Positions 21,790 through 59,402 of a DNA stretch of 64,000 nucleotides are shown piece by piece. The stretch lies in contig OX597817.1 in assembly GCA_951406725.2 (NCBI GenBank), positions 133,548,001 to 133,612,000 of the forward strand. Direction: 5' to 3'. How positions within the stretch are numbered: position 1 is the first letter of the stretch; every line of letters starts with the position of its first letter. Position numbers and translations under genes: made by a program. The notes beneath the pieces are model-generated. The model did no database searches. It was not told the origin of the DNA and was given only the letters and a program-made list of their open reading frames with translations. The stretch is from Octopus vulgaris. Its lineage: Eukaryota.

Positions 21790-21886
21790 ATAATGTACAG
21801 ATCCATGATAGAAATATATAGAAGAAAAAGAAAATAGAGATTGGAAAGTTAATAATTGTTCATCACTAACAGTAAATTAACCCTCA

Positions 21887-21978
21887 TCCCTTACAGCTGT
21901 TTCAATTAATACTAAGTAAATATTAAGTAAATATTAAATCTATATTTATATGACCTCAGCATAATATCTTCAGAAGGA
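21887..21978 (-). ncRNA. Type I hammerhead ribozyme motif (core intact)
   Basis: Minus strand: tcctt-CTGAAGA-tattatgctgag...cttagtattaatt-GAAAC-AGCT-GTA-aggga. It has a 5-bp stem I, palindromic stem III ACAGCTGT and a GUA triplet. Confidence 0.75.
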
Positions 21979-22069
21979 AAAATTATACCCTTGGGTATTT
22001 ATGTGTTTATGGATTCATTATAGCAGACAAATCCAGAAATACATATAAAACATCGAAGTGTATATTTTT

Positions 22070-22161
22070 TCCCTCTGAAGATATTATGCACAGGTCATAT
22101 AAATATAGATTTAATATTTACTTACTATTTACTGAGTATTAATTGAAGCAGCTGTAAGGGA
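22070..22161 (+). ncRNA. Type I hammerhead motif with one core substitution
   Basis: tccct-CTGAAGA-...-GAAGC-AGCT-GTA-aggga; mirror copy of 21887-21978. Confidence 0.65.
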
Positions 22162-22399
22162 TGATGATTAATTTGCTGTTAATAATAAACAATTTATTAA
22201 CTTCCTAATCTCCATTTTCTTCTTCTTTTATATGAATATAAATTATATGTTTTTATACATATACCTATTATTTTAAGAAAATTAATTCCCCCAAAATACT
22301 ACGTATTGAACCAGTATTTCCTTGGATGAGGAAGTACATCCCTTCGTGAGGTTAACACAGCCTCTAATCATATATATTGTATAACCTGCCGAAATTGCA

Positions 22400-24545: not shown

Positions 24546-24799
24546 ATCATTTATGAATTATATACTTTTTTGCTCTTTTACTCTTTTCAGTCATTTGACT
24601 GTGGCCATGCTGGAGCACTGCCTTTTAGTCAAAAAAATCAACTCCTGGACTTATTCTTTGTAAGCCCGGTGCTTATTCTATCGATTCTTCTGCCAAACTG
24701 CTATGTTTTGGGGACGTAGACACACCAACATTGGTTGTCAAGTGATGATAGTGGGGGAGAAACACAGACACAAACACACACACATTAATACATGCATAT

Positions 24800-25005
24800 G
24801 TGACCTCGTGAGTACCACTGGCGATTTTTTTCCTCTGTCTTCCCTTCTCGGGATCTTTCCTTCTCCCATGTTTCTGACGAAGAGCTCCGCTCGAAATGTT
24901 AAACCCTCCTTCTTCCCTTCTTTCCTGAGCGTCCAATAATACTTTATTTGTTCCACGTCCTCGCGTTGTTGTGTTTTTTTTGTTTTTGTGTTTTCTTGTT
25001 TGGAT

Positions 25006-44420: not shown

Positions 44421-44798
44421 CCTGGGGGTTAGTAGCCTGCGCTCTTAATCACTACATCATATGCCCATGGTCAATTATAGAGTGAATTTTAGGGCTTATA
44501 AATCTAATATTTTTCTATCCTTCTTTAATACCGGTTCCCATATGCTACTCATATCTGCACTAGGTCTGCTTAGTGGTTTGAGTTTGATTCCAAGTAGTAA
44601 CCTGAATAATAATAATAACAACATTGGAAAAATACCTTAGGAATGAGAATCCAGGTTTGAAATTTCCCCAGGACACCTGATGAAGGCTGGAGAGTACATC
44701 AGCCAAAAGTTGTGTTAACAACAAACAAGATGAGGACAAATATCCGTCAAATGTAAATAATCTTCATAATTCCTCATCTCTCAAATATAGGACTGTAT
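44421..44798 (+). mobile_element. Element combining a tRNA-like module, (AAT)n and a hammerhead; 5' part inverted
   Basis: tRNA-like 5' half on the minus strand (44421-44466), B-box gagtttgattcc on plus (44580-44591), hammerhead relic at 44672-44716. The 3' end is shared with 49642-49727. Confidence 0.65.
44672..44716 (+). ncRNA. Type I hammerhead relic
   Basis: gacac-CTGATGA-a-ggctg(gagagtacat)cagcc-AAAA-GTT-gtgtt. Stems I and II are each 5 bp; GAAAC has decayed to AAAA. Confidence 0.65.
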
Positions 44799-45122
44799 TG
44801 TTTCATTAGAAATAGTATTTCAGTTTTTGAAAATGAAGATTATTTTGAGAAAGACCGGGCTGATATATCAGTGTAGATCTTTCTTGCTATCTTGTAAGTT
44901 ATCATTTTAAGATACATAGCAACTGTTTTTACTGTCGTTGGCTTCAGATATGAGCATTCAACTTAAAACATGACATCAAACAAGGGAAATAATGCTGTGA
45001 CATATTGTAATCTGGAAAACTCAACAAAGTCTACGGGCACTTTCATGGCTCAGCTAAGTCTTGTGTTATTTGACTCTTGTGCTGCTAGCACTGAAATCTT
45101 TAATCATGTCACAAGTCAGGTA

Positions 45123-49586: not shown

Positions 49587-49727
49587 TACATTATTTACAT
49601 TTGACCAATATTTGTCCTCATCTTGTTTGTTGTTAACACTTGTGTTAACAACAAACAAGATGAGGACAAATATCCATCAGATGTAAATAATGTACATAAT
49701 TCCTCATCTCTTAAATATAGAACTGTA
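49587..49727. mobile_element. Fold-back of the 3' end of the 44421-44798 family (53-bp arms, 2-nt loop)
   Basis: tacattatttacatttgaccaatatttgtcctcatcttgtttgttgttaacac-tt-gtgttaacaacaaacaagatgaggacaaatatccatcagatgtaaataatgta, continuing cataattcctcatctcttaaatatagaactgta as at 44765-44797. Confidence 0.9.
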
Positions 49728-52388
49728 TTATCCAATGTCACTGTTCTCCTAGATGATCACGATAGATATCTGAGCAAACTAAACAGATCCTTTAGAATAT
49801 ATTGCCTGAAACTGACAAGAATATTTCAAGGTGATAAACTTGATGGTGTAGGTGTGTGTTTACCAGTCATGTCATCAGGCTACCTAGTTTCTGCAATAAA
49901 AACACTGATGCACAAGATTACAAGAGAGATATGAGTGTCTTCTTTTTCTAATGTAAGAAACAATCCATACTTTTTCCACAGTTTATGCATGGATTACTGT
50001 ATGGATACTTGGGAAAGTATATCCTTAGAGGAACCATTTCAAAATCAAGGAATATTCATTTGCAGCAGACCAAGATGAATAGTACAAACAAGAACCAGTG
50101 TGATCAAAATGATAAATAAATATAACAAGCTTCATATATTGATTTTTGTTAAAGAAGTAACCAAATACTCTATAATGCAATAACAAAGCTATAAATTATT
50201 TGATTTCAAAAATATATGTATTTTACAAAACAAATTAAGGATGTTTAGACGTGAGTGAGCTACACACACCCACAGAGGCATGCGCGTGCGTGAACGCACA
50301 CACACTCACATACATGTATGCACAGAGTGAGCTAAGAGAAATAACCGGAGTGGGTTAATTTCATGAATTCAGATAATTTGGGCTTGCCTTTTAGTTAGAG
50401 GAAGAAATCAAAAGCCTAGCAATTGATAAAGTTTACACATTTAACTAGGAATGGTATAAGGTATTAAACTGAACCCCAATATATGACTGGTACTGGTACT
50501 TATTTTGTCATGAGGAGGAAAAGTTAGACATCTGCTACAGCTACAACAATAACAGCAACAACAGCTACCACTACTATTACTAATACTACTAATACTAATA
50601 ATAATAATAGTTATTTCTAACATTGACACAAAGCCTTAAATTTGGAATGGGAGGTGTAAATATCTGTATTGATTTCCATACATGGCTGGTATTTATTAAT
50701 TGACAGTGAATCGAAGAAAGGCAAAGTCTATCTTGATGAGATTTGGTTTTTAGACATAAATAAATTTCACATAGCTATTAAGTCCATCGCTGTACTTTTT
50801 CTGCCACTCACTGCCTTTAATGATGATGATGAGGAGGAGGTATACAATAACAAAAACAACAATAACCATTTCTAATTTAGACACAAACATGGCAATTTTA
50901 GGGGAAGGTGCTCATCGATTACATCAACTGATACTTTCTCTATCAACCTCAAAGGGATGAGATTTGAACTGAGAGTTCAGCAAAGGGACATGTTCATCTA
51001 GCTGTTTCTTGCTAGAATGCCACAGTTTACATCCCACCAGCTTTAAGACCATAAAATAAAAATAATTCTCCTAAGTTAATATTTTATACATCAGACAGTT
51101 TTTACATTAAAGCAGATACTGACAGTTAACATCAAAGGATAGCATATATACAGCAAAGGATAGCATATGCATTAAAGGATGGTTGTTTTCTCAGGATACA
51201 CCAACTTAAAGGAAAACATAGTGACGAGGCTGAAAACTAAAGTGGACAGAAGTAATGAAGCTAAACATTGAACAATGTCACAGCAAAACCCTAATAAATG
51301 CTTCTACATCATCAAGGCAGTTACTGCATCAATACTGGTAACAAATGTATCCAGATTTTGCCTGTCGAGAACAGAGCGTAACTCATCTGCAACAAAGCAA
51401 ATATTCAACCAGATGGAAGATGGAACTAAAGCACACAGCAACAGAGGACGCTGGTTGGTGGAGTAAGAGATCAAAGCCATAAAGAATGGGTGTTACACTT
51501 TATTTAGAACTGCTGAGAACTGGTGAAATAACAGTAGTGAAGCTAATAAGAATAATAATAGTAATGTTAATGTTACCAATGAGAATAACGATCACAACAT
51601 TAACCATGTTAATAGTGTAAATATAACTTATAACAAATATGTGGAGGTGAGATATCTTATTCCAGCTGTGACAAAGAACACAACCTGTGTAGTTATCACA
51701 GTTGTAATGAGCCACATCAAATAGGGCCTGACCAGGAAAGTGATGAAACATGCAAAGAACTGACACAGTGTATTATCAACAGATTAAAAACTCATGCAGA
51801 ACAGGCTACAGTAATCTCAAGAGCAGTAGTCTTTATTTAAAGAAAACCCTACAGTAATATATTAACATGCATCATGGTATTGCTGTAAACAAGGTAAAGA
51901 TCAAAATCAGATACGTCAATACATAATTAAATAATGAGCTTTATAACTCTCTCTATGTTTCTATTATTTTAGCTGTTGGAAAGCGCAGGACTTCATAAAC
52001 AGTCTTTTGTTACAAAAGCTTAAATTAAAACACATAGATAACCAAATAACAGTAGCCCATTATTGCAAGCAACATAAGCAATGAACCAACATAATAGCAT
52101 GTATTACAATCCTTAAAGCTTAGAATTATACACAGTAAGTAATAGATTAAAAAAGTATAGTGTTAGGAAATAACTTTTTGTTTCTTCAATTATATGCAGT
52201 AACAGCATAAAAATAAGAGAGTATTGTAGTTCGTTCGAAGCCTTGTGCCATTGGCAGCGGTGACGTCGTCATTTAACGTCCATTTTCCATGCTGGCATGG
52301 GTGTATTGTTTGTAAAATATAACATGTCTTGAATGGCACAACAATGCAGAGTAGACTATAATAACTTATAATTTAATTATCCATAGTC

Positions 52389-59198: not shown

Positions 59199-59402
59199 TA
59201 TAAGTGAGTAACAAAGATGTACAGGTATCAATTCATTATGGCCGTTTCAAACGACTCCTTTAATTGATTAATGAAAACATTACATCATAGCAAAGGAACC
59301 GTTTTCATTTGCTATGAGGCAATGTTTTCATTAATCAATTAAAGGGGTCGCTTGAAATGGCCATAATAAATTGACACCTGTACATCTTTATTACACATTT
59401 AT
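59199..59402. repeat. Fold-back inverted repeat (~100-bp arms) with hammerhead-like relic
   Basis: Arms 59199-59298 and 59303-59402. The arm consensus reads ttcat-..gaggc...gctt-GAAAC-GGCC-ATA-atgaa. Confidence 0.85.

Follow-up and report, generated by a model that had tools for sequence, protein, structure and literature searches.

Endonuclease-bearing Penelope-like elements (PLEs) of the Penelope/Poseidon type have been described as having a terminal repeat, the pLTR, with an optional tail of 30-40 nt at one end, an adjoining inverted copy that is truncated at its 5' end, short target duplications, and head-to-head junctions that often fall at palindromes (Adineta Pen2a, PMC3846280; Craig et al., PMC8557442). 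These features recur in the octopus family considered here, which departs from the type, as those accounts present it, in that both arms of the fold-back described below are shorter than 90 nt and the pLTR starts with a tRNA-like head. A further model is the in vitro reaction of the green anole Poseidon element, the sole reconstituted system, in which reverse transcription proceeds from two start sites that define the tail, with a minimal hammerhead upstream of them, and both target strands are nicked and extended; the octopus family appears to resemble it in each respect. The parts of the anole study available to us report no reads ending at the cut and a hammerhead that is dispensable for insertion, cleavage being unnecessary in vitro, and they do not mention a deletion across the cut (PMC11167929).

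The minimal type I hammerheads of metazoan PLEs have a short stem I, a bulged base before stem II and a palindromic remnant of stem III, are predicted to be cleaved as dimers, and occur as opposite-strand motif pairs 100-700 bp apart (PMC4209133). The octopus motif is of the same kind. The animal ribozymes cut poorly in vitro, and the available portion of that study notes their high variability but not a fixed deletion at the cut; in the octopus family, which is known by its motif only, base H17 is U. A precedent for reading a ribozyme cut from genomic junctions comes from the HDV-like ribozyme of R2, where the cut sets the element's 5' end (PMC3774820).

The fold-back and its family

The window analysed here is a stretch of 64,000 nucleotides of Octopus vulgaris DNA (contig OX597817.1, positions 133,548,001 to 133,612,000), and the whole-genome counts given below come from a genome of 2.8 Gb. 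It holds a short fold-back, at 49587-49729, whose family is the terminal repeat of a Penelope-like element. A match to the reverse transcriptase (RT) domain RVT_1 lies upstream of the pLTR (E of 4e-6, just short of Pfam's curated cut-off), and the order RT, endonuclease-like piece, pLTR is found on one strand in loci L324/L030, L058 and L117. Past the RT, at the C-terminal end, is a pattern of CxC, Y-x-G and R..EH, which may be a GIY-YIG-like endonuclease motif. The endonuclease-like piece has YKG in three copies (L398:1887-2255, L058:1907-2272 and L323:9152-9577), unlike the usual YIG; Pfam matched none of the three pieces, and the protein atlas gave no name for them either.

The preliminary description of the locus had linked it to insertions with an inverted-LTR structure, and the arrangement of the copies bears out an inverted insertion of the Penelope type. 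Exactly one arm is tailed in 154 of the 174 head-to-head pairs in the loci, and a target duplication of 7-16 nt accompanies 95 of these 154 one-tailed pairs, against about 5 expected from shuffled pairs. Of the two arms in a pair, one starts at the end of the tail and its partner close to the tail boundary, the ends of the tail-less arms lying mostly at +50..+60 (in our numbering, +1 is the G on the 3' side of the predicted cut and -1 the T on its 5' side). The insertion type of the fold-back is one that is already known. The terminal repeat opens with the tRNA-like head (L027:1451-1525; 44422-44470 of the window, minus strand), and many direct arms start at the first bases of this head (-177); ARAGORN called a tRNA in none of 13 loci, and the likeness was recognized by eye only. 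Non-LTR retrozymes, which are tandem head-to-tail monomers, each with a hammerhead and with no coding link (as described in bioRxiv 10.64898/2026.07.22.740005), were considered and rejected, since the fold-back is a head-to-head stub and its family is contiguous with RT coding DNA.

A longer copy of the family occupies 44422-44799. The stretch 44421-44798 had been taken as one collinear unit, but about 44422-44573 is inverted. This minus-strand piece consists of the end of the endonuclease-like region and the tRNA-like head of the pLTR, and the corresponding part of the query (2-153) lies in other copies on the opposite strand, immediately upstream of the pLTR. The remainder, 44579-44799 on the plus strand, is a direct, 5'-truncated and tailed pLTR that is about 90% identical to many genomic copies, and in L324/L030 and L058 this pLTR is found downstream of RT and endonuclease-like coding pieces. 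The longer copy is thus itself an inversion, with its direct part resuming a few bases on, like a twin-primed insertion.

The fold-back family carries a putative minimal type I hammerhead, which in the longer copy spans 44672-44716 on the plus strand, with stem I formed by 44672-44676 and 44712-44716 and stem II by 44685-44689 and 44700-44704. The cut had been predicted between 44711 and 44712, and this agrees with standard hammerhead numbering and with the minimal layout of PMC4209133, as far as that layout is available to us. Compared with other copies the core is damaged here, G12 being changed to A and one base lost, whereas the common form has the core boxes, stems I and II and the palindromic stem III remnant. 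An Rfam search gave no hammerhead match and the lowest-energy fold is not a hammerhead, so that the ribozyme here is a motif match only. RNA reads from organism B have no pile-up of ends at the cut, a result that is little informative because the libraries were fragmented and apparently unstranded.

The fold-back itself consists of an inverted, tail-less arm at 49587-49639 (minus strand; element bases +1..+53; 96% identity over 50 nt to 44712-44761), a TT at 49640-49641 (plus strand), and a direct arm at 49642-49729 (plus strand; +1..+88; 93.3% over 90 nt to 44710-44799, the TT included). The direct arm ends in the optional tail of roughly 35 nt, at about 49695-49729; tailed arms reach +84..+87 of the reference. 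An 8-nt palindrome, TGTTAACA, lies at 49643-49650 (+2..+9) and in the full element is predicted to sit within a 5-bp hairpin that extends from -3 to +11. Such fold-backs do not arise by chance, as a backwards control pattern found 0 loci against 82 with the real pattern. The two arm identities uphold the earlier claim of a fold-back with an arm ending at +1, and the limits first given for the left arm's end (49639) and the right arm's start (49642) stand, while the right arm is now seen to run to about 49729.

The further claim, that the turning point coincides with the cut, holds in part. The left arm stops exactly at +1, but the TT matches bases -2/-1 of an uncut template, so that one arm may extend past the cut. 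The junction maps formally as +1/-2, and a reading as +1/+1 requires that the TT be two untemplated bases. No target duplication longer than 5 nt was found flanking 49587-49729, and the flanking DNA is not duplicated.

Arm ends near the predicted cut and the origin of the fold-back

If cleavage set the ends of the arms, a sharp peak of breakpoints at the cut had been predicted, with a uniform spread along the element as the contrary outcome. Over the whole genome, read-through of the predicted cut was counted in at least 8,503 arms, and 670 leave the consensus within about +10..-18. The latter set omits perfect palindromes centred on TGTTAACA, which were counted instead from the 82 short fold-backs (0-60 nt between anchors). 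Those of the 670 that lie on contigs C1-C5 were examined, giving 224 rows, or 219 without duplicates, and 131 ends remained after internal deletions and arms running further upstream had been removed; the junction calls misplace some arm ends by a few bases. The ends are not uniformly spread, their density being 7.1 per base over +11..-3 and 2.1 per base over -4..-18. The dense zone is, however, a broad plateau and not a peak, and its limits match the palindrome and the hairpin from -3 to +11. A step model placed at the cut fitted 11 log units worse, although the step could be displaced by A's appended without template after run-off, which would look like ends at -1/-2.

At position +1 itself we counted 10.5 of the 131 ends. 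Unambiguous ends come to 8 at +1 (Poisson p 0.04, the neighbouring positions having a mean of 3.8), while -2 has 8 and +3 has 7. Because the 8 at +1 include the 49587-49729 event and two or three ends that by eye have microhomology to a non-reference variant, the excess at +1, at most two-fold, is not significant. A sharp R2-like peak of 5' ends at the cut was not found either among the flank-joined ends (2.1 of 55 at +1) or in sample B, which used a more distant anchor and had 0 of 77 arms at +1 among the matches listed of 729, its ends, taken upstream, falling from 23.5 over 16 bases to 13.5 over 14 and then 11 over 15. By rough scaling, arms that end at the cut make up well under about 1% of all arms and most arms read through, unlike the situation described for R2.

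Several joins within the element form patterns of their own. In L304, L406 and L245, arms stop at or beside +1 and restart more 3' in the element, some of them twice, which suggests repeated template jumps. L082, L088, L169 and L289 have a recurrent join of +2..+4 to -41..-44, that is, between the two strands of hammerhead stem I.

The hairpin is best accounted for as a minimal head-to-head Penelope-like insertion, and this is probably the correct explanation. Both strands of one cut target would prime separate passes of reverse transcription, each pass beginning at one of the two fixed sites that apparently define the tail; both would stop early, and the cDNA ends would then be joined end to end. 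The join falls in the dense zone +11..-3, where the self-complementary TGTTAACA and the hairpin probably supply microhomology. The earlier caveat that the near-palindromic sequence might favour fold-back on its own account is in keeping with this, since the dense zone coincides with palindrome and hairpin. Of the 82 short fold-backs, the first 50 were examined, and 10 of these have TGTTAACA at their centre.

Evidence for a single source of both arms comes from lineage variants that paired arms share. The +38 variant is present in both arms of 18 pairs, discordant in 18 and absent from both in 130 (p 2e-11), and the variants at -32 (p 0.004) and -42 (p 0.003) are likewise common to paired arms, while sharing of the -20 marker in pairs is not significant (p 0.2). 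The fixed end of the tail-less arms in turn points to a second initiation. In L1 twin priming, two primers from the two target strands give rise to an inverted and a direct part, which are joined at microhomology. The octopus pairs differ from this in that both arms start near the 3' end of the element and overlap, rather than covering consecutive parts.

The preliminary description had favoured another route, in which the ribozyme-cut RNA is copied to run-off at +1, the cDNA then folds back or switches strand, and inverted structures of this kind would arise in this manner. In favour of such a route, the left arm stops exactly at +1; of the 50 short fold-backs examined, 5 require a +1 end (49587-49729 included) and 15 permit it; and L032 and L298 keep the exact mismatched C expected from run-off to +1 followed by fold-back. 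The R2 junctions, with 5' ends reported to be set by ribozyme cuts (PMC3774820), again provide a parallel. Against it stand the lack of a sharp peak, the agreement of the TT with uncut template, and the fixed end of the tail-less arms, with the second initiation that it implies. Snap-back in particular would call for a stem that is absent from the 49587-49729 junction, which has a 2-nt loop and no microhomology, and two passes of reverse transcription account for the arm pairs better than snap-back does. The first 22.7 Mb of C1, moreover, contain 10 head-to-head pairs in which, judged by eye, each arm continues through the cut, against 2 short fold-backs, and over the whole genome the fold-backs turning one bin further upstream (133, with 61-120 nt between anchors) exceed the 82 that turn near the cut. 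With at least 8,503 arms reading through as well, the inverted structure cannot in general be put down to cleavage. Ribozyme mutants of the anole element also insert normally in vitro, according to the portion of that report available to us (PMC11167929). As a general origin, run-off from cut RNA is accordingly unlikely; that the 49587-49729 event used a self-cut RNA as template is possible, if rather doubtful.

A further origin, in which a truncated copy was afterwards duplicated in inverted orientation at the DNA level, by fold-back during repair, is very improbable: it would agree with the failure to find a target duplication at this event and with the palindromes at L265/L266, which take in non-element DNA, but here the flanking DNA is not duplicated, and the left arm reaches only the zone of the tail boundary while the right arm goes on to the end of the tail, the pattern of 154 of the 174 pairs.

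A three-base deletion spanning the predicted cut

The commonest indel of the family is a deletion of three bases across the predicted cut (L027:1625-1627, equivalent to window positions 44709-44711), and we regard it as a better candidate than the fold-back for a trace of cleavage. We found no published description of it in a search of listings and abstracts and of passages from the papers cited here. The deletion is present in 23 of 163 arms chosen independently of the site, compared with 3 of 837 at six matched control sites, each likewise of 3 nt with 2-nt homology, and with 7 of 166 at the AAC repeat, which is longer (p 0.002 against the cut). Genome-wide, 1,618 of the 8,503 arms have a deletion within +14..-4. 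Among 100 of these that were listed and scored by eye, 66 lose three bases across the cut, 10 lose five, 19 have slipped at the AAC repeat and 5 at the TG repeat, some rows carrying two events; scaled from this list, the three-base deletion would be present in about 12.6-13% of arms and the five-base deletion in about 2%. RNA reads from organism B carry the three-base deletion at a similar frequency (507 of about 3,420, 393 of about 2,640 and 300 of about 2,430, or 12-15%, in three runs of one study), and it is the sole multi-base deletion in the rows shown of the read table.

The deletion looks as old as the insertions. The G-to-A decay of the junction CpG is found in 9 of 55 deletion arms and 37 of 191 intact arms (17 of 66 and 18 of 88 when scored by eye, in samples that partly overlap with the computed ones), while steady later deletion predicts about half the intact level of decay, if the deletion needs the GT repeat. 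A deletion-bearing subfamily was rejected as the main cause, given that in 19 of the 22 pairs with the deletion the two arms disagree (for sharing, p 0.40) and that it is found on both alleles of every lineage marker; a weak link to lineage remains, as the -32 A lineage has a modest excess of it (12 of 48 against 23 of 206). It also co-occurs with the AAC deletion (7 of 19), a connection that is unexplained.

Two explanations of the deletion have to be weighed. The first, with close to an even chance of being right, is a slippage hot spot that involves no cut, in which the enzyme slips where it pauses, on intact RNA, at stem I or the base of the hairpin, or DNA slips in later replication or repair. 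The site does combine a CpG and a hairpin with a direct repeat of 2 nt, microhomology deletions are numerous in the fold-back family (71 of 220 filtered arms), and slippage would suit the association with the AAC slip. On the other side, slippage is much rarer at the TG dinucleotide repeat in the same place (5 of the 100 listed, against 66), no deletion occurs at other CpG sites that have 2-nt repeats (0 of 287 and 0 of 278), and dating by CpG decay favours an origin at insertion, which weakens later DNA slippage and leaves pausing of the enzyme.

The second explanation is a serious possibility that nevertheless falls short of even: the RNA is cut in vivo by the ribozyme, its two pieces remain together, and the enzyme passes over the nick, losing three bases. 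The cDNA would run off at +1, and its last two bases would re-anneal on G-3/U-2 of the 5' piece, giving the three-base loss. Such a hop would explain the concentration of deletions at the cut, compared with both the matched sites and the AAC repeat, and their presence in all three runs of RNA reads. It is also consistent with pairs in which the deletion is discordant while lineage markers are shared, and with a junction CpG decayed about as in intact arms. Discordance within pairs is, however, equally expected from later DNA mutation, and a test of deletion age is without power, the copies differing little in age. An enzyme that pauses at stem I on uncut RNA would leave the same scar, and both the excess on the -32 A lineage and the co-occurrence with the AAC deletion count against the hop.

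A second hammerhead-bearing repeat, at 24796-25005 of the window with its core at 24874, is set in TA runs and belongs to a family with 8,885 matches (about 8,900 copies). Among the 100 matches listed, none has an indel at the cut, an absence that favours slippage over the hop; the core reads CCGACGA in most copies, however, with U4 changed to C. Base 17 is T, C or A, and never G, in the same 100 matches. The RNA reads of organism B cover only a relative of this second family and not the family itself, and no third hammerhead family was found in the loci. The window has two more long inverted repeats, at 59200-59402 and 21816-22233, which are unrelated to the Penelope-like family of the fold-back.

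Possible cleavage by PLE hammerheads in vivo

One hairpin is not enough to decide whether the minimal hammerheads of animal PLEs cut in vivo. We tentatively suggest, as a reading that may well prove wrong, that the hammerhead cuts often in the germ line and that the RT routinely hops the nick, with about 1 pass in 7 leaving a three- or five-base deletion, clean hops leaving no trace, and rare failures giving arms that end at +1, like that of the hairpin. If this were true, over a thousand scars of cleavage would be present in the genome.

With about 13% of copies carrying it, the deletion at the predicted cut provides a signature that can be counted. If it depends on catalysis, it would demonstrate that cleavage happens in vivo and that an enzyme related to telomerase crosses a nick; the in vitro assay that already exists, and any genome containing elements of this sort, allow it to be scored.
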